Part shown: one piece after another, positions 259-32,030 of the stretch
Layout: every line of letters starts with the position of its first letter
How positions within the stretch are numbered: position 1 is the stretch's first letter
DNA from: Patescibacteria group bacterium
GTDB taxonomy: Bacteria > Patescibacteriota > WWE3 > UBA101185 > 2-01-FULL-41-18
Direction: 5' to 3'
DNA: 47,155 nt
Assembly (NCBI GenBank): GCA_038064575.1
Contig: JBBTST010000019.1
Coordinates: 1 to 47,155 of the forward strand
Notes under the pieces: model-generated
Seen by the model: the letters and a program-made list of their open reading frames with translations, nothing else
Databases searched by the model: none
Told to the model about the DNA's origin: nothing
Made by a program: the position numbers and the translations under genes

Positions 259-2493
259 ATGCCTAGAGGAAGACGTAAAACTCACAAAAGAAAACTAAGT
301 AAAGGTGCCTTAAAGTCAATTTTGTCTATTTTTCTTGTAGTTACGGGGCTTTTGAGCCTTGTATCAGTATTTTCCAGCTCTGGGACGCTCCTTTCCGTTG
401 TTAACGAGGCTCAAAACCTTGTTTTTGGCTACGCTGCAATCCTTTTTGCTTTTACCACGTTCTTTGTTGCACTTCTTCTTTTCAGGGAAAGCCTTGAAAT
501 CCCTTTTATCAACATAAGAAGTTTTTTTGGTTTATTAGTCTTTGATTCTTGTTCTTTTGGACTCCTCTCGGCTTTGGAAAAAGTGCTAAAAAGAGGAGAA
601 TTACCCAATGGGTTTGAAAATGGCTACGGGGGCTTTATTGGACTTTCCCTGTTTTCTCTTCTGACGCGAGCGTTAACCTCAATGGGTGCACTAATTGTGC
701 TACTTGCAGGAGTTGCTATTGCTTTTATTTTAATTTTTGATGTATCCATTGATCAGATTTTAAAACTGTTACTTCTTATCTTAGAAAAAGTAAAAGCTTT
801 GAGGCCAACAGTTTCCCTTCCCAAAATGGATTTCAGCTCAACGGGGGGAAGTTCCTACTCTGCCCCATACACTGAGGATGAAGAGGAGCACAGTCAAACT
901 ACTGAAACAGCCTCCAAAAAGAAAGACTCAAAAAAAGAAGCTGTGTTTGAAGTGATTCAGCCTGCGCTTGAGCCTGTTGATACAAAAGCTACCGCCGGTA
1001 AGGTCCTCCATTCTGGAATCTCTACAAAAGGAGTGATTCAATCGGGGCTGCCTTACACTGATAGGGTTTGGGAATATCCTCCAATTGACCTTCTTTCAGA
1101 CTATTCTTCCCAAGCAGATAGGGGAGATGTGACTTTTAGAAAGCAATTAATAGAAAAAACTCTCTCGCGGTTTGGTATCAACGCAAAAGTACTGGAAACA
1201 AATTTTGGCCCTGCTGTTACTCAATACGCTCTTGAAATTAATTCGGTTACAAAAATTGCCAAAGTTACAAATCTGCAAAATGATTTGGCTCTTGCGCTTG
1301 CCTCCCCAACCGGTTCAGTAAGAATTGAGGCGCCAATTCCGGGAAAGTCTTTAATTGGAATTGAAGTGCCAAATATTGCAACAGGAATAGTAAGTTTTAA
1401 AAGCGTAATTACCTCTGACTCCATGAAAGGCTCCAAGTCAAAACTAAGCATAGCTCTGGGACACGATGTTTCAGGAATGCCAAGAGTTGCGGATATTTCC
1501 AAAATGCCCCACCTTTTGATTGCAGGAAGTACAGGTTCGGGCAAATCTGTATTCTTGCATTCAATTCTGTTTTCAATTTTATATAGGTGTTCTCCTGCAG
1601 AATGCAAAATCATTATGGTTGATCCAAAAAGAGTGGAACTTGTTAACTACAATGACATTCCGCATTTACTGATTCCGCCAATAACTGATGCTGAAAAAGC
1701 ACCCAACGCATTTAAATGGGCTGTTGCTGAAATGGAAAGAAGATACAAACTTTTTGAAAATGCAAAGGTGAGAAACATTACCGCTTACAATGAACTTTCA
1801 GGCTTTCAGGCCCTTTCCTACATAGTAATTCTTGTTGATGAACTTGCAGAGCTTATGGCCTTGCAGCCGGGAGAAATGGAAAAATCTATTTGCCGATTGG
1901 CACAGCTTTCAAGAGCCACCGGCATCCATTTAGTACTGGCCACACAGTCTCCAAGAGTGGATGTAATTACAGGACTAATCAAAGCAAACATTCCAACCCG
2001 TGTAGCTTTTAGTGTGTCAAGCCAGGTTGAATCAAGAATTATCATGGATACCGTTGGTGCTGAAAAACTGTTAGGAAAGGGGGATATGCTTTATATTCCG
2101 CCTGAAACTTCAAAGCCTACAAGAATTCAGGGAGTTTTTGTGTCAGATAAAGAAATAGCAAATCTTGTTGGGTTCCTTAAAAACAGTGGCGTCAAACCTG
2201 ATTATAAAGATGATGTTATGAAACCTCAAATTGTGCAAAGAGGTGAGTTTGCAAATTCCACTGATGAGCTTTTTGAAGAAGCGGTAAAAATAATTACCAC
2301 AAGTGATAAAGCCTCAGCGTCTCTTCTTCAAAGGAAACTTTCAATAGGGTATGCAAGAGCTGCCAGGCTCCTAGATGAGCTGGAAGCTAAAGGTATTGTT
2401 GGAGCTTCTGATGGAAGTAAACCCAGAGATGTGTTAATAAGAAATCCAGACATTATTTTATCCCAAGAAGATTCTGCCCCAGAGTCTTTATGA
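259..2493 (+). CDS. ftsK: DNA translocase FtsK/SpoIIIE
   Basis: N-terminal 4TM region; RIEAPIPGKS..GIEVPN; Walker A GSTGSGKS; Walker B ILVDELAELM; C-terminal gamma domain SLLQRKLSIGYARAARLLDELE. Confidence 0.97.
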   Translation: MPRGRRKTHKRKLSKGALKSILSIFLVVTGLLSLVSVFSSSGTLLSVVNEAQNLVFGYAAILFAFTTFFVALLLFRESLEIPFINIRSFFGLLVFDSCSFGLLSALEKVLKRGELPNGFENGYGGFIGLSLFSLLTRALTSMGALIVLLAGVAIAFILIFDVSIDQILKLLLLILEKVKALRPTVSLPKMDFSSTGGSSYSAPYTEDEEEHSQTTETASKKKDSKKEAVFEVIQPALEPVDTKATAGKVLHSGISTKGVIQSGLPYTDRVWEYPPIDLLSDYSSQADRGDVTFRKQLIEKTLSRFGINAKVLETNFGPAVTQYALEINSVTKIAKVTNLQNDLALALASPTGSVRIEAPIPGKSLIGIEVPNIATGIVSFKSVITSDSMKGSKSKLSIALGHDVSGMPRVADISKMPHLLIAGSTGSGKSVFLHSILFSILYRCSPAECKIIMVDPKRVELVNYNDIPHLLIPPITDAEKAPNAFKWAVAEMERRYKLFENAKVRNITAYNELSGFQALSYIVILVDELAELMALQPGEMEKSICRLAQLSRATGIHLVLATQSPRVDVITGLIKANIPTRVAFSVSSQVESRIIMDTVGAEKLLGKGDMLYIPPETSKPTRIQGVFVSDKEIANLVGFLKNSGVKPDYKDDVMKPQIVQRGEFANSTDELFEEAVKIITTSDKASASLLQRKLSIGYARAARLLDELEAKGIVGASDGSKPRDVLIRNPDIILSQEDSAPESL

Positions 2494-3416
2494 CCTTGCA
2501 TGTTATTTCTAAAAAAGTGGGCATTTCTGCAAAAGAGCTTATTGTGCTTTTGCAAGAGCTTTCAGATGAAAAACTTTCTTTCACTGCTTTGGTTTCTAAA
2601 ACCGGGCTGTCTATTGAAACTCTTAAAAAGCTTAAGAAGGAGGCACCTAGTCTTTTTTTACCAATACCTAATTTTTTTGTGCTGAGTCAAAAAGGAAAAG
2701 AGGAGCTTGGAAGAGCAATGAGTGAAAAAGGGGAGTTTAAGGAGGAGTACTCTGAAAAAGTTCTTGGATTTTATAATGAGCTTGAAAAGACAAGGCCTGC
2801 TCCTGAAAGAAGTTTTGATCAGTTCTACTCAACTCCTGAAACCCAAGTTAAGAGGCTTAAGTTTTTTATTGAAAAGGCGGATCTTAAAAACTCCTCCTTT
2901 CTGGTTTTAGGAGATGATGATTTAACGTCAGTATGTTTGGGTATCACAAATTTAGTTCAGCGGTTAGCCGTTTGTGACATAGATCAAAGACAGTTGGATT
3001 TAATATACTCCTTATCTAAAAAGTTTAGATTTGAAGCGGATACGTATCATTTTGATTTTAAAAGACCTATGCTTTCCGAACTCAAAGCAAAGTTTGATGT
3101 GGTTTTTACGGATCCTCCTTATACCAAGGAAGGCTTTAGACTTTTTTTGGATAAAGCGTTTTCAGCTTTAAACAGAACAAATGGCAGGATATATATCTGT
3201 TTTGGAAGTAGTGAGAGATCTCCTGAGAGATATTTGCCTATTCAAGAGGCGATTAATGATTACCGTTTGGTGATTGAGGAAGTTCACAAAAATTTCAATG
3301 CTTACACTGGAGCCGAGTCGGTTGGGAACAGAAGTAGTCTATATGTCTTAAGACCCACGCCTTCCTCAAAATCGGGGAGAAAGGTAAATTTGGAGAGAAT
3401 TTACACATATGAGTAA
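2490..3416 (+). CDS. bpsA: Branched-chain polyamine synthase (BpsA/DUF43, bis-aminopropyl spermidine synthase family)
   Basis: FDQFYSTPET..KR, LGDDDLTS, DIDQR and FDVVFTDPPYT..G..LFL motifs; N-terminal wHTH-like segment; ATGA overlap with ftsK stop. Confidence 0.8.
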   Translation: MTLHVISKKVGISAKELIVLLQELSDEKLSFTALVSKTGLSIETLKKLKKEAPSLFLPIPNFFVLSQKGKEELGRAMSEKGEFKEEYSEKVLGFYNELEKTRPAPERSFDQFYSTPETQVKRLKFFIEKADLKNSSFLVLGDDDLTSVCLGITNLVQRLAVCDIDQRQLDLIYSLSKKFRFEADTYHFDFKRPMLSELKAKFDVVFTDPPYTKEGFRLFLDKAFSALNRTNGRIYICFGSSERSPERYLPIQEAINDYRLVIEEVHKNFNAYTGAESVGNRSSLYVLRPTPSSKSGRKVNLERIYTYE

Positions 3417-4329
3417 TTACCAATCGCACACAAAAATGAAAAATGTGGGTGAAATGCTGAAAAACGCCAGGGAAAAAAAGAATTTAACTTATGCTGAGTG
3501 CTACAAATTTATCAGGGTTCACCCAAAATATTTGGAGGCTTTGGAGGAGGGCAATTACAAGCCTTTTTCCGGAAGCGTTCACATTAAAGGGTTCTTAAAA
3601 AATTACGCAAAATTGCTTGAGCTAAATGTTGATGAAGTTCTGGCTTTTTGGAGGAGAGAATATGATGAATCAAGAGCTGGCAACACCAAAATTATCAGAC
3701 CTCTGGAAGGTCCGCGTTTTTTGGTAACTCCCGCATCAGTTGTGGCCTTTAGTGTGGTGAGCTTGATGGTTCTGTTTTTTTCTTATCTTTTCTACCAATA
3801 CAAATCATTCACCGGTTCTCCTTCTCTTACCATTGATTCCCCAAAAGCAGATACTATGGTTTCAGCAGATGAGGTTGAGGTTTCAGGAAGAACAGACAAG
3901 GATTCTTCAATTCTTTTGAACGGAGAAAAAATACCCGTTAATCCTGATGGGACCTTTGTTACCAGAGTAAATTTACTTGAAGGCCTTAATACCCTTAATT
4001 TTTATGCTGTGAATAAGCTTGGAAAAGAAACTAAATTGACAAGAACCGTGGTTGCCAAGAAAACTGTGGAAAGTGCCTCTGTGCTTGGAAAAAAGACCAT
4101 CAAACTTGAAGTTCTTGCAGGCAACGCCTCAAGCGTACTTTTGGTTTTTGTTGATGAAAAGGAGGCTTTTAACGGAAATATGTTAACAGATTCCTCAAAG
4201 ATTTTTGAAGCCTCAAACTCAGTTAAGATAAGAGCAGAAAATGCCGGGGCTTTAAGTTTAAAATTAAATGGTGTTGATCTTGGAGCCTTTGGAAAAAAAG
4301 GAGAAGTCAAAGAACAAGAGTTTAAATAA
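3409..4329 (+). CDS. rodZ: RodZ-like protein (HTH, TM, Ig-like domain, DUF4115-like C-terminus)
   Basis: GEMLKNAREKK..YLEALEEG..IKGFLKNYAKLL HTH; one TM; Ig-like segment; C-terminal IRAENAGALSLKLNG..LG..GKKGEV; typical position after ftsK. Confidence 0.8.
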   Translation: MSNYQSHTKMKNVGEMLKNAREKKNLTYAECYKFIRVHPKYLEALEEGNYKPFSGSVHIKGFLKNYAKLLELNVDEVLAFWRREYDESRAGNTKIIRPLEGPRFLVTPASVVAFSVVSLMVLFFSYLFYQYKSFTGSPSLTIDSPKADTMVSADEVEVSGRTDKDSSILLNGEKIPVNPDGTFVTRVNLLEGLNTLNFYAVNKLGKETKLTRTVVAKKTVESASVLGKKTIKLEVLAGNASSVLLVFVDEKEAFNGNMLTDSSKIFEASNSVKIRAENAGALSLKLNGVDLGAFGKKGEVKEQEFK

Positions 4330-28141: not shown

Positions 28142-28606
28142 ATGAGAGGTGCAAAAGTTAAAAAAAGAATAGCTCAGCCGGATGCTGTTTTTAAATCAAG
28201 GCTAGTTTCTAGACTGGTTAATAATCTGATGGTCCATGGAAAAAAATCAACTTCCGAGAAGATAGTATATGGTGCTATTGATGCTTTAAGTGAAGACAAA
28301 AAGGAAGCGATCAAAATTTTTGAGGATGCGCTTAGAAACATTATGCCCCGCCAGGAGGTTCGTTCAAAAAGAGTGGGGGGCGCAACCTACCAGGTACCCT
28401 ACCCAGTGAGACATGATAGAGCGGAAGCATTGGCTATCAGGTGGTTGATTTTGGCTACAAGAGCAAAAAAAGGTAAGCCTGTGGCAGAAAAACTTGCCAC
28501 GGAGCTTAAAGATGCCTCTTCAAATCAGGGGGCTGCCATCAAAAAAAGAGACGATGTCCATAGAATGGCAGATGCAAACAGAGCTTTCAGCCATTTTAGA
28601 TTTTAA
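28142..28606 (+). CDS. rpsG: 30S ribosomal protein uS7
   Basis: RVGGATYQVP, HRMADANRAFSH. Confidence 0.98.
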   Translation: MRGAKVKKRIAQPDAVFKSRLVSRLVNNLMVHGKKSTSEKIVYGAIDALSEDKKEAIKIFEDALRNIMPRQEVRSKRVGGATYQVPYPVRHDRAEALAIRWLILATRAKKGKPVAEKLATELKDASSNQGAAIKKRDDVHRMADANRAFSHFRF

Positions 28607-28953
28607 TCGTTTCTGATTACCTCTTCTTTTAACTCAATTTTTTTCAAATTATAGCCTTCAGCAATTCTTTGTTTTATCTGTTGGATAGCATCACTGTCAG
28701 GTTTTTTACAAGTAAGTATATCTATTATCATAAAGTTTTTTTCAGGCCATGTATGAATAGCAATATGCGACTCTGAAAGCAGAGCGTAAGTAGTTACCCC
28801 GTGTGGTAGAAAATAATTGCTACTACTTTCTAAAATAGTGGTTTTCAGGGCCTTTGAGATAACTTGGCAAAGGACATGAATTTTGTGGGAATCGTCAAGA
28901 TTATTTGAGGATTTTGTAGTGATGTTGAACAAGAAGTGATACGCAATTTCCAT
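28603..28953 (-). CDS. speD: Pyruvoyl-dependent S-adenosylmethionine decarboxylase proenzyme (SpeD family)
   Basis: F.PHGVT...LLSESHIAIHTWPE....IDILTC with the ES self-cleavage site; TAAACT 7 nt upstream of ATG. Confidence 0.88.
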   Translation of the reverse strand: MEIAYHFLFNITTKSSNNLDDSHKIHVLCQVISKALKTTILESSSNYFLPHGVTTYALLSESHIAIHTWPEKNFMIIDILTCKKPDSDAIQQIKQRIAEGYNLKKIELKEEVIRND

Positions 28954-29027
28954 GAGTCTTAGTTTAAGTTAAATGTTACTTTGGCACAAATTAATGCTAG
29001 GCCGTGATTTTTTAACCTTAATTATGT

Positions 29028-29056
29028 TTGACATGCGTGCTTAATGTGTTTACTCT
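29028..29056 (+). promoter_or_regulatory. Leaderless sigma70 promoter
   Basis: TTGACA, 17-bp spacer, TACTCT, 6 nt, ATG 29063. Confidence 0.75.
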
Positions 29057-29062
29057 AATGGT

Positions 29063-30055
29063 ATGTTTAGGAATGCTGCCCTGACTTTTGTACTTTTGCT
29101 AGTTACATTTGTTGTTGTGTCTTTTGGAATCTTTAAACTTTTTAGTTCTGGTTTTTTTCCGTTCAATAAAGTTATCCAAAAACCTCTTTCCAAAGAGAGT
29201 ATGTCTAGTAAAGAGACTTATACCCACCTTGGAAAGACTCTTGAGGGCTATCCATATACTTCTTACAAAAAAGTATCTGAGCAGAAAAAAAAAGTACTTG
29301 AGTCAGAAGTTAAAAAAACTGCTTCTGGGGAATGGGAGACGGTTTTTGATGAATATGGCTTTATCCTATCAGTTTTAACTCCTGATTTTGGGCTTGTGGA
29401 TAAGAGTACTAGTTATGAGGAACCTGTTACTCAGGCTGAGCTTAGAAAAGTAGAGCAGTTTATTCTTGAAAACAGCCGGTATTTTGGTATTGAATCTACT
29501 TCTTCAGTTAAATTTAATAAAGCGCTTATTCCATATAGTACCGTAAGCCATATTGCAAGCCAAAATAAGGAAAGTGTAGTCTTTGAGAAAGGCGCGGTTA
29601 TAAGTTCTCCTGATTTTGGGAAGCATGGAGCAATCTTCATAGAAAGAAGTATGAGAGAACTTGGACAGGGTGCAGAATTAGATATTTATGGACATTATTG
29701 GCCGGAGGTTAGTCTTCCAGAAAACCCTCTTATCTCAGAAGAACAGTTAAGAAATGAATTTGTTGGTAAAGACTATAGACATATTGAATATATCCTTTGT
29801 GATTCGTCAGTTGACAGTTCCAAAGATCAAGTTCGCTTTGGAGTTCCTTCAGGTTGTTCTGAAGAAAAAGAACTTATACAAAAGATAGCAGATAAGGATT
29901 TGGAGGTTTTACTAAAAACATTCTTTTATGAAAACCTGGCAAAAAATCAAGTTGAAGTTAGGCTTGCGTATGAAGTAAAACTGACTGTGTCCCCTGGTTT
30001 TGTAAAGGTAATTGATGCAGTTACGGGAGAACTCCTTAGTAGTAGGCAACTCTGA
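29063..30055 (+). CDS. Membrane-anchored/secreted protein ending in a PepSY-like (M4/M36 propeptide) motif, no catalytic domain
   Basis: N-terminal TM; QFILENSRYFGI, P.ISEEQ, RLAYEV...VIDAVTGELL. Confidence 0.6.
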   Translation: MFRNAALTFVLLLVTFVVVSFGIFKLFSSGFFPFNKVIQKPLSKESMSSKETYTHLGKTLEGYPYTSYKKVSEQKKKVLESEVKKTASGEWETVFDEYGFILSVLTPDFGLVDKSTSYEEPVTQAELRKVEQFILENSRYFGIESTSSVKFNKALIPYSTVSHIASQNKESVVFEKGAVISSPDFGKHGAIFIERSMRELGQGAELDIYGHYWPEVSLPENPLISEEQLRNEFVGKDYRHIEYILCDSSVDSSKDQVRFGVPSGCSEEKELIQKIADKDLEVLLKTFFYENLAKNQVEVRLAYEVKLTVSPGFVKVIDAVTGELLSSRQL

Positions 30056-30062
30056 GATTGTG

Positions 30063-32030
30063 ATGACATCTTTAACGCACTTAAAAGTAAATAGGTTTAT
30101 ACTGCTTACTAATTTTGGTCTTACCATTTTATTTGCTGTTGGTCTTTTGGCTTTTTCAGTCGGGACATCAAATGCTGCAACGTCAAGCTCCTGTGAGCTT
30201 TCCACAACTTGCGGAGGTTCCCTTTGCAATCCCAATAATCCTTCTGAGATTTGTTGTTGCTGCGACCTGTGTGAAAAAGTTGATTTATCCATTTGTCCCG
30301 TTGATAAATACCCCAACTGCAAAAACTTAACAGGCCAAACTAAAGTTTATCCCGGTAAGGCCTACCAATATACCGCTTTCTATGAAGACTATAACGGTCC
30401 TGTAACTAAGGAAGGTTTAGTCGTTTATGGAAACAGTTGTTCAGATATCAAAACAGCGCTTTCTTATACTGGGGGACCAGGTAGTCGTACTTTTGAGTGG
30501 GTGCCACCGGCCCAGGGAAACTATTCTATGTATTGTCTTGCATGGAATGGGAATGACTCGGTTTGTAAAGGCGATTGTGTAGAGGGTCCTCCCCAATTTT
30601 CCTGTATTGGCCCAGCCAGTAAATTAGCCATATGTACACTTCCGGAAATAGTGACTGGTTTGGTAGCCTTAGATAAAGACTTGTGTGGTAAAACAAACAC
30701 ATCTCTTAGTTGGAACCCTTCAATTGGAGTTGAGAGTTATACTATTTTAATTGATGATACTTCCTCTCCTCCAACAGATTGTTCATCAAATTTTGATCAA
30801 CCGTTTTCAGGAGATACTTGTTATAGGACTAGTGAAACCTCATTGCCCATTTCTTTAGTGGTGGGGAAGACATATAAATCAACTGTTACCCCAAATAACG
30901 CTTGTGGTGTTGGTACTGAATCTGCAGCAACAATCGCCTTAGACAATACACCTTGTGAAAAGTATACACTCTCAACAACCTGTGATGGGACTGAGAATGG
31001 GAGCACTGTCTCAGTGGATTCTGGCAGTACATTTAATCCAAGGTCAACTTATCGGTTGGTAGCTTATCTTGCAGGTACCAATAGTATAGCTTCCACAGCC
31101 AATTCGATCAGTGCAACTGCTGTTAAAGTAACTTTTTTAGGCTGGTCTCCAAAACTTGAACAAAAACACTATGACATAGAGTTAATGCAAGTTTCTCCCT
31201 TCCCTGAAGTTTCTCTTCGAAAATTTTTAGATGTAAATCTTGAGGGGTGTACGGCTTGTGATAAGAAGGCGGTCGATGTTGTCTTTACTGTAGACAGGTC
31301 GGGTAGTATGACCTCTACTTATGAATTTAATGGTGTCTCCAAAACCCAAATAGAATGGGCTAAAGATTCGGCAAGGTCGCTTTTGAGCGCATTTTCACAA
31401 AACCCAAGTTGGGAAGTTGGGAACATAAGGTTTTCAACAATGTCATTTGCGGGGAGTATGGCAGATACAACCGTTCACAACACTCTTTCTTCAGATTACT
31501 CTACTATCTTGTCAGCTATAGATTCCATAAGTTATGGGCAAGGCGGTACCTGTGGGGAGTGTCCTATCATTAAAGCCTACGACCTTTATAACAGCCCTCG
31601 CTCCGATGGGAAACAGGCGACCAAACTGAACATTCTTCTTACGGATGCGCTTTTTAACAGGGATCTGAATGGTGTGAGGGTGCCTGATGCCAAGCAGAAG
31701 GGTATAGATGCAGCTGATGCAGGAAGAAGCAAGGGTATAGCATACTACGTTGCTGCATTCGGTAACAGTTTTAGCGCCCCAACAGCCAAAGCGGTTGCCA
31801 ATGATCCAGACGCCCGCTACTACAGTTATAGAAGGAACATAGGCGAGTGGTCGGAAGGCATGGCCGAGTTTGAGGACGCAATTTGCGAGGATATTTATAT
31901 AACTATTTCCTCAGGCGGTTCGAGCAATTCGGGTCAGTCTGTGAGGGGTGCCTATTCCTCAACGCTTGTGTTTTCATTTTGGGACAAGGTTATGGCACTT
32001 TTTTCAAGAATTATTGGACTCTTTGAATGA
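30063..32030 (+). CDS. Secreted Cys-rich surface protein with FN3-like and vWA domains
   Basis: Signal peptide ending SNA; Cys-rich N-terminus; LSWNPS..VESY FN3-like segment; vWA MIDAS DRSGS..GGT..LLTD; amphipathic C-terminal helix. Confidence 0.78.
   Translation: MTSLTHLKVNRFILLTNFGLTILFAVGLLAFSVGTSNAATSSSCELSTTCGGSLCNPNNPSEICCCCDLCEKVDLSICPVDKYPNCKNLTGQTKVYPGKAYQYTAFYEDYNGPVTKEGLVVYGNSCSDIKTALSYTGGPGSRTFEWVPPAQGNYSMYCLAWNGNDSVCKGDCVEGPPQFSCIGPASKLAICTLPEIVTGLVALDKDLCGKTNTSLSWNPSIGVESYTILIDDTSSPPTDCSSNFDQPFSGDTCYRTSETSLPISLVVGKTYKSTVTPNNACGVGTESAATIALDNTPCEKYTLSTTCDGTENGSTVSVDSGSTFNPRSTYRLVAYLAGTNSIASTANSISATAVKVTFLGWSPKLEQKHYDIELMQVSPFPEVSLRKFLDVNLEGCTACDKKAVDVVFTVDRSGSMTSTYEFNGVSKTQIEWAKDSARSLLSAFSQNPSWEVGNIRFSTMSFAGSMADTTVHNTLSSDYSTILSAIDSISYGQGGTCGECPIIKAYDLYNSPRSDGKQATKLNILLTDALFNRDLNGVRVPDAKQKGIDAADAGRSKGIAYYVAAFGNSFSAPTAKAVANDPDARYYSYRRNIGEWSEGMAEFEDAICEDIYITISSGGSSNSGQSVRGAYSSTLVFSFWDKVMALFSRIIGLFE

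Follow-up and report, generated by a model that had tools for sequence, protein, structure and literature searches.

The window analysed here is the whole of a 47,155-nucleotide stretch (assembly GCA_038064575.1, contig JBBTST010000019.1, positions 1–47,155 of the forward strand) from a Patescibacteria group bacterium of the class WWE3, whose genome (G000) is 959 kb long and 97% complete. It carries a gene for a 308-aa relative of the branched-chain polyamine synthase BpsA (2490–3416, hereafter the transferase) and a gene for a small SpeD, a putative S-adenosylmethionine decarboxylase (AdoMetDC). Judging from their sequences and distribution, these proteins form a real, class-wide two-enzyme module in WWE3. 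Alignments assign the transferase to a separate branch of the BpsA fold, called here DPPY after its motif, and not to thermophile BpsA. It is likely to use decarboxylated S-adenosylmethionine (dcSAM) as aminopropyl donor. The explanation ranked first, although held tentatively, is that it would aminopropylate a scavenged small amine, most probably a diamine (e.g. putrescine), and thereby form a linear polyamine, for instance spermidine.

The transferase and SpeD as a module

A preliminary description of this DNA reported a BpsA-like reading frame with GDDD and DPPYT motifs overlapping the ftsK stop and the rodZ start, and a SpeD with an intact Glu-Ser cleavage site at 28603–28953. Both are confirmed. 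The comparison with Thermococcus BpsA that it proposed gives clear matches: the transferase scores 168 bits with the PF01861 (BpsA_C) profile (cut-off 27) and matches T. kodakarensis BpsA (Tk-BpsA; PDB 5xnc) at E 8e-32, and BpsA structures are the best structural matches of its predicted structure (pLDDT 92), with Z 26.5–28.6 across residues 82–308. METTL5 is the next structural family (Z 21), and PF10237 is also matched over its cut-off (28 vs 23.2 bits). The single SpeD of G000 scores 77 bits with PF02675 and 76.4 with TIGR03330 (cut-off 75.65). Besides Glu61-Ser62 and Glu71, it possesses His67 and Cys82, which together with Ser62 correspond to the processing residues Ser63, His68 and Cys83, as well as Pro50 and a WPE motif as in Thermotoga maritima AdoMetDC.

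The co-occurrence of the two genes, proposed earlier as a check, was found in a survey of 128 WWE3 genomes, which as related genomes are non-independent data points. The transferase is present in 95 and SpeD in 89; 83 carry both, 12 the transferase only, 6 SpeD only and 27 neither, so that 83 of the 95 transferase genomes carry SpeD. Another survey with Pfam profiles (61 genomes, i.e. G000 and 60 relatives) detected SpeD in 49 of the 50 transferase genomes and in 4 of the 11 others. The SpeDs of these four belong to a different type (HTF-x-K/R), and their clusters include one agmatinase-scoring neighbour and one SpeY-like one, a context that the consulted part of PMC10407285 associates with arginine decarboxylases. 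Strong-hit SpeDs occur in 79 genomes, all with the transferase, a class that is partly circular because the SpeD profile used for the 128 genomes was derived mainly from transferase neighbours. They are fused to the transferase or located at most 1 kb from it, except in G000, G001 and G137 (coordinates read by eye).

Fusions of the two domains (PF02675 and PF01861) account for 12 of the 120 homologs listed, and the closest named homologs among these matches come from candidate division WWE3. A 298-member fusion cluster, mostly from WWE3, is present in the ESM Atlas. Fusion or adjacency is recurrent in other bacteria of the candidate phyla radiation (CPR), in Bathyarchaeia and in Asgard archaea (80 named loci), and the DPPY branch, found in these two archaeal groups, also occurs in myxobacteria, Clostridium and Methanococcus. 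Within the phylum, 20 of 28 WWE3 genomes have the transferase domain above its cut-off, against 5 of the 373 sampled genomes of other Patescibacteria; most of the 95 WWE3 genomes carrying the gene have a single copy. No SpeE was found over the cut-off in the 128 WWE3 genomes (four weak matches), which leaves SpeD without another known partner. Fusions, co-occurrence and the covariation of Asp159 with AdoMetDC (see below) thus bear out the earlier proposal of a two-gene module.

Asp159 and the aminopropyl donor

Residues Asp159, Asp160, Asp225, Glu228, Glu259, Tyr290 and Tyr316 are given in Tk-BpsA numbering, for which a Thermococcus stetteri protein served as proxy (its tail numbers exceed by two those of a 2026 review, PMC12979288). 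According to the accessible text of this review, Asp159 and Asp160 form salt bridges with the aminopropyl arm of dcSAM. Asp159 is retained in all 73 distinct loci in which SpeD is fused (32) or adjacent (41) and is altered in 21 of the 61 loci without a near SpeD. Among the 12 WWE3 transferase genomes devoid of SpeD, 11 have lost Asp159, in two independent events, with one exception. None of the 10 genomes of family f156 has SpeD, and their transferases read GDYD or GDFD, i.e. Tyr or Phe at position 159, and MetK is found in 7 of these 10 vs 2 of the 83 genomes carrying both the transferase and SpeD. G466 reads GDGD and has no speD between groEL and the transferase, while its congener (G272, 66% identical) has speD at this place and GDDD. 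Four myxobacterial genomes with GDDD encode no class 1 SpeD (0/4) and all encode a class 2 AdoMetDC (4/4). In plant spermidine synthase, the analogous replacement of the dcSAM-binding Asp (D103I) abolishes aminopropyl transfer and confers weak methyl transfer (PMC3725402, consulted in part). Because of the fusions, the co-occurrence and the tracking of AdoMetDC by Asp159, dcSAM is the likely donor, and the use of dcSAM by the protein encoded at 2490–3416, as assumed in the preliminary description, is upheld.

The f156 proteins (L168–L177) are short forms of about 210 aa, without the N-terminal domain, encoded beside valS in the loci seen; their sequences make them candidate donor-switched enzymes that would use SAM. 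The class 2 AdoMetDC of the myxobacteria (L189, L190) is of the eukaryote type (PF01536) in all four DPPY-bearing genomes.

A branch distinct from thermophile BpsA

The name branched-chain polyamine synthase, given earlier to the transferase, is not supported because the protein falls outside the thermophile clade and is devoid of Glu228, of the loop with Tyr316 and of the acidic cluster of the tail. In a quick tree of 85 rows (including wrongly picked reading frames on long branches, L056_x and L034_x), it groups among WWE3 relatives, and the 26 thermophile-type rows lie on one side of a branch with an SH-aLRT of 94, below the starred level of the tool. Only 3 of the 120 homologs listed are of the thermophile type (DPPE), the other sequences of this type having been retrieved as a separate set. 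Asp126-Gln127, GDDD, Asp181, Asp225, Glu259, Tyr290 and the tail Tyr are retained, the acceptor-side residues Asp225, Glu259 and Tyr290 corresponding to Asp208, Glu242 and Tyr272 of the transferase; Glu259, kept here, is nevertheless variable across the branch. Glu228, Asn292-Trp293, the 18-residue Tyr316 loop, the CxxC pair and four of the five acids of the tail cluster, the aminopropyl carrier in BpsA, are lost.

Among 40 thermophile sequences sampled, Glu228, Asn292-Trp293, Trp315-Tyr316 and the tail Asp/Glu residues show almost no variation; in 60 DPPY sequences, they are altered or missing. A Tyr occupies the position of Glu228 in 128 of 134 aligned loci; the use of Glu228 as a diagnostic is a choice of this analysis, this residue being absent from those named in the consulted part of PMC12979288. 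The tail Tyr is surrounded by at least three acids in 105 of 116 thermophile-type sequences, whereas 211 of the 221 DPPY-type sequences have no more than one there, and CxxC is present in 115 of 116 vs 2 of 70. A carboxylate is found three residues past the tail Tyr in 151 of the 221 DPPY sequences (85 terminate there and 66 have Glu or Asp), so that a reduced aminopropyl relay is possible. The locations of these features are given in Table 1.

Table 1. Location of the transferase, its motifs, SpeD and the flanking genes in the window.
Feature	Position	Strand	Basis
ftsK (context)	259..2493	+	profile
BpsA-like (PF01861) protein, DPPY branch, 308 aa	2490..3416	+	profile, structure, alignment, tree
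N-terminal helical domain, about residues 1–80, without CxxC	2490..2729	+	model, alignment
DQF (Asp110-Gln111), common to thermophile BpsA (Asp126-Gln127)	2817..2825	+	alignment
GDDD, residues 141–144 (Tk-BpsA Gly157–Asp160)	2910..2921	+	alignment
DPPY(T), residues 208–211; Asp225 retained, Glu228 replaced by Tyr	3111..3122	+	alignment
FNAY (Tyr272 = Tyr290), then branch-specific GAESVG; 18-residue Tyr316 loop missing	3294..3305	+	alignment
C-terminal IYTYE; tail Tyr retained, Glu308 sole remaining acid of the five-acid cluster	3399..3413	+	alignment
rodZ-like gene (context)	3409..4329	+	profile
speD, class 1b AdoMetDC-like proenzyme, 116 aa	28603..28953	-	profiles, alignment, fold
Self-cleavage (pyruvoyl) site, Glu61-Ser62; SpeD further has His67, Glu71 and Cys82	28768..28773	-	alignment

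Acceptor and product

The proposed functioning of the module can be viewed as follows. The cell would obtain SAM from its host, as MetK was not found in G000. SpeD, whose motifs are present, would undergo self-cleavage at Glu61-Ser62 and convert SAM to dcSAM. Asp143 and Asp144 of the transferase would then grip the aminopropyl arm as Asp159 and Asp160 do in Tk-BpsA, and a smaller and less acidic pocket, devoid of Glu228 and of the Tyr316 loop, would admit a short amine and not the N4 of spermidine. The aminopropyl group would be transferred either directly or via the lone C-terminal carboxylate, Glu308. The product is probably non-branched, and both SAM and the amine would mostly be scavenged in WWE3. 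A linear product made from a short amine is ranked first because the small-molecule clusters that harbour relatives of the transferase fit small-amine chemistry: those encoded by other CPR and by Bacillus plasmids have as neighbours folE, queD, queE, queC and genes for glycosyltransferases, a carbamoyltransferase and a PIG-L deacetylase, and fusions of some relatives with GT2 or GNAT domains also occur.

The preliminary description called for a search for speE and metK, and neither was found in G000; three PF01564 matches in G000 were discarded as SpeE since they score far below the SpeE cut-offs. Neither an agmatinase, a SpeY-like gene nor a PF01048 (methylthioadenosine, MTA) nucleosidase was found in G000. 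An ODC-like (ornithine decarboxylase-like) gene is present in 8 of the 128 WWE3 genomes. That of G000 (C14:9436-15169, L141), like that of G002 (L140), lies within a block of genes for membrane proteins and response regulators, and in G002 it is followed by a gene for an NNMT/PNMT-type methyltransferase.

Several points weigh against aminopropyl transfer from dcSAM to a small amine. The losses of Asp159 amount to just two independent events, and G002, a 99% complete genome of the same family as G000, keeps GDDD although no class 1 or class 2 AdoMetDC was found in it, one of these searches having been run without its own positive control. A His159 form exists in other phyla, and as it coexists with a class 1 SpeD encoded elsewhere in 4 of 5 such genomes, the Asp159-SpeD rule is not general. 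The persistence of the gene in f156 after the loss of SpeD is not well explained by a pure polyamine role. A gene of the ODC-like or arginine decarboxylase (ADC) type occurs in only 17 of the 95 genomes with the transferase, and the diamine would therefore have to be imported; the sole solute-binding-protein match of G000 resembles sugar binders and lies below the cut-offs. The ODC-like protein of G000 has Leu in place of the Cys that G002 has in the GxxCDxxD stretch, a residue that is presumably catalytic. G000 has no PF01048 nucleosidase match for the clearance of MTA. No activity is on record for any DPPY member in the literature consulted, as far as the texts accessible go, and the DPPY motif also fits nucleobase or protein-amine acceptors, by analogy with enzymes covered in the part of PMC11514484 consulted.

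This last point leads to the alternative that survives best, although it is unlikely: a dcSAM-dependent aminopropyltransferase acting on an exocyclic base amine of tRNA or rRNA, a protein lysine or a protein N-terminus, which would be a new modification. It is retained because DPPY is an amino-methyltransferase motif and because the gene persists where SpeD has been lost. The motif fits the D/E-P-P-Y/F consensus of methyltransferases acting on N6 of adenine, on Lys of eEF1A and on Gln of release factors (PMC11514484, in the part consulted), PF10237 is matched over its cut-off and METTL5 is the nearest non-BpsA fold; without the 18-residue loop, the active site would be more open. The gene, usually present as one copy, occurs in 95 of 128 genomes in which polyamine synthesis is largely missing. 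The f156 proteins keep DPPY and the IYT tail after losing Asp159 along with SpeD, with MetK in 7 of 10 genomes, as though methyl could replace aminopropyl on the same target. On the other hand, no such modification appears in the titles and beginnings of abstracts of the three papers listed on aminopropylation and RNA modification, no consistent link with RNA genes exists and members of the family lie in small-molecule clusters. The basic pI of the transferase (8.7) is near the proteome median (8.2), and that of myxobacterial members ranges from 5.1 to 9.7; it is indistinguishable from the proteome and was dismissed as a sign of RNA binding. The tip of the EF-P loop is Arg in the 14 loci matched by the pattern (of 30), whether the gene is present or not, and EF-P was rejected as a target for lack of correlation. 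That the DPPY branch together with SpeD aminopropylates an RNA base or a protein amine as a near-core function in WWE3, with the Tyr159 family f156 reverted to methylating the same target, is improbable.

The preliminary description had considered a DNA- or protein-modifying role on the basis of a winged helix-turn-helix at the N-terminus. A macromolecular acceptor is kept here, as an unlikely one, through the DPPY motif and no longer through this domain. The N-terminal domain is a poor sign of DNA targeting because thermophile BpsA aligns over this region, which we take to be a winged helix in that enzyme, and because relatives of 208–213 aa (f156, G137) lack it. No relative of the transferase was found in viral contigs; the modification of phage DNA was rejected, the only phage match being one unannotated 4.3-kb record. 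Concerning EF-P, the loop tip Arg (K-x-[AG]-R-[GQS]) was observed in all WWE3 matches seen (G000:C14:23388-23546; L196–L225).

Slightly less probable is the view of the preliminary description, according to which the N4 of scavenged spermidine would be aminopropylated to branched polyamines as by BpsA. The fold is the same, including the C-terminal tail (aligned up to Tk residue 351), GDDD, Asp225 and Tyr290 are retained, together with Glu259 in this protein, and the carboxylate at +3 of the tail Tyr would allow a reduced relay. This is countered by the position of the transferase outside the thermophile clade, the altered or missing acceptor-side and tail residues described above, the variability of Glu259 across the branch and the assignment of branched-chain polyamines to thermophiles in the consulted part of PMC12979288.

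According to the least probable alternative, the gene would encode a methyltransferase (or aminocarboxypropyl transferase) that depends on SAM, or would be in decay, and the distant speD, unrelated to it, would encode e.g. an arginine or ornithine decarboxylase: this would fit the DPPY motif and methyltransferase fold, the retention of the gene without SpeD in G002, the unlinked position of the two genes in this WWE3 family with a differently occupied rpsG-fusA slot in G002, and the finding that SpeD homologs are often ADC or ODC where SpeE is missing, also in CPR (PMC10407285, consulted part), but is opposed by the fusions and adjacency across CPR, Bathyarchaeia and Asgard archaea, by the intact Asp159 of this protein, by the WPE that the window SpeD shares with T. 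maritima AdoMetDC and with partner SpeDs (Glu72 in 71/72) and by the status of this SpeD as the sole one of a genome in which no agmatinase or SpeY-like gene was found.

Clusters of relatives

A common cluster was observed in CPR (L049:5974-12907, L050, L051, L077, L038/L185, L054, L070) and on plasmids of the Bacillus cereus group (L191:1348-12279). It comprises a BpsA-like gene, folE-queD-queE-queC and genes for a carbamoyltransferase and a GT2 protein, to which some clusters add speD or genes for a PIG-L deacetylase, a DegT protein, an APH-like kinase, a KsgA-like protein or ABC transporters. From its gene content, this cluster possibly encodes an undescribed 7-deazaguanine glycoside pathway. 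A deazaguanine pathway was rejected for G000, where no folE, queD, queE, queC or carbamoyltransferase gene was found, QueC being present in just 8 of 401 genomes of the phylum. Elsewhere, a gene for a GT2-BpsA fusion precedes an ATP-grasp gene among glycosyltransferase genes (L123:4753-8000, L160:274-3182), SpeD being fused as well in L123. A metagenome scan for Clostridium-type neighbourhoods found none.

Genomic context of the two genes

The transferase gene shares 4 nt with ftsK, its ATG overlapping the stop of the latter, and 8 nt with the rodZ-like gene, whose first ATG overlaps the transferase stop; an alternative rodZ start lies at about 3436. The RodZ label relies on HTH_25 (E 3e-17) and on a RodZ_C match below cut-off. 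Contigs of a second study cross both junctions with zero differences, and the locus is therefore not an assembly artefact. The order ftsK-transferase-rodZ is found in all three genomes of this WWE3 family. Five relatives were searched for comparison, two of which gave no rodZ match and one a weak match; in the two with a full match (G043 and G024), ftsK directly adjoins rodZ and the transferase gene is elsewhere. In other WWE3 families, this gene lies beside those encoding an M23 peptidase, ValS, RNase H or UvrD-like proteins (the last three labels being read from sequences). The functional tie to segregation and shape genes suggested in the preliminary description is rejected on these grounds. 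The position between ftsK and rodZ is an insertion peculiar to this family, and the overlaps likely bring co-translation with both genes, which implies no shared function. Promoter and terminator scans gave results at chance level.

The speD gene, 25,187 bases from the transferase gene, is antisense to rpsG and overlaps its stop. It occupies the identical antisense slot after rpsG in G001; in G002, this slot is filled by other genes. The interval between rpsG and fusA (28603-32030) contains speD, a 330-aa reading frame without Pfam match and a gene for a VWA-domain protein. G001 and G002 carry other genes in this interval, besides or instead of speD. Within the str operon, this interval is a hot spot for insertions.

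Variation among SpeDs

Partner SpeDs have Glu72 (WPE) in 71 of 72 cases, a position at which 9 of 13 unlinked SpeDs have Lys or Arg. All 33 fused SpeD domains have Asn, Gln, Ser or Thr instead of the Glu that precedes the cleavage Ser (e.g. L008–L023), while Ser63 (33/33), Glu72 (33/33) and Cys83 (32/33) are retained. Thr replaces the pyruvoyl Ser (ETH) in 10 of 39 adjacent SpeDs, all archaeal (L093, L098–L100, L102, L105, L106, L110, L114, L116), and these proteins would have either a ketobutyryl cofactor or poor processing. A second type of WWE3 SpeD (DPGG...QESH...HTF; L024–L033, L119), some members of which adjoin agmatinase or SpeY-like genes, occurs with or without the transferase; these features suggest that it likely comprises arginine decarboxylases of the homospermidine route. 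In general, SpeD homologs found where SpeE is missing are often ADC or ODC, CPR included (PMC10407285, in the part consulted).

Significance

WWE3 bacteria have shed most of their biosynthesis and yet keep this two-enzyme module, and its product therefore probably matters to the cells. The presence of a sister branch in 95 of 128 WWE3 genomes contrasts with the restriction of bpsA orthologs to thermophiles stated in the accessible part of PMC12979288. The candidate source runs of the window are groundwater metagenomes without recorded temperature, and the source organism is not known as a thermophile. No paper was found on the DPPY branch or on the transferase-SpeD fusion, although primary BpsA papers and their supplements may treat mesophile homologs; databases name members of the branch bis-aminopropyl spermidine synthase (family) proteins, a label untried by assay. 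If the transferase substitutes for SpeE, it would constitute a second structural route to spermidine-type polyamines. The natural variants, with Asp159 where SpeD is present and Tyr, Phe or Gly where it is absent, offer a ready system for the interconversion of aminopropyltransferases and methyltransferases.

Comparison with known systems

The closest characterized system is BpsA (EC 2.5.1.128; 5xnc/5xnf/5xnh, 6j27/6j28 and 2qm3, from T. kodakarensis, Thermus thermophilus and Pyrococcus furiosus), which has the same fold, with 25–32% identity over about 220 residues. Both share DQ, GDDD, Asp225, Tyr290, the tail Tyr and a likely use of dcSAM. The transferase differs by DPPY in place of DPPE, by the lack of the Asn-Trp...Trp-Tyr316 loop and of CxxC, by one tail acid instead of five, by a source organism not known as a thermophile and by a branch often fused to or located beside SpeD. 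The window SpeD resembles class 1b AdoMetDC of T. maritima (1vr7/1tlu) in fold (TM 0.8), in Ser63/His68/Cys83 and in WPE; it differs from known enzymes of this class by the lack of a SpeE partner in class WWE3.

SpeE has the role proposed here for the transferase, namely the conversion of dcSAM and a diamine to a linear polyamine, and between it and its derivative, putrescine N-methyltransferase, the swap of an Asp likewise goes with a change of donor (PMC3725402, consulted part). It belongs to a different Rossmann lineage: the aminopropyltransferase motif hhhhGGG(D/E)G (PMC11107197, consulted part) was not found in the transferase sequence, which likewise has no match to the SpeE profiles. 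Finally, the DPPY amino-methyltransferases (METTL5, EEF1AKMT1/N6AMT2, PF10237) share DPPY after strand 4 and are the next-best fold (Z 21), whereas the transferase is distinguished from them by GDDD at the cofactor loop, the BpsA tail, the N-terminal domain and the tie to SpeD.

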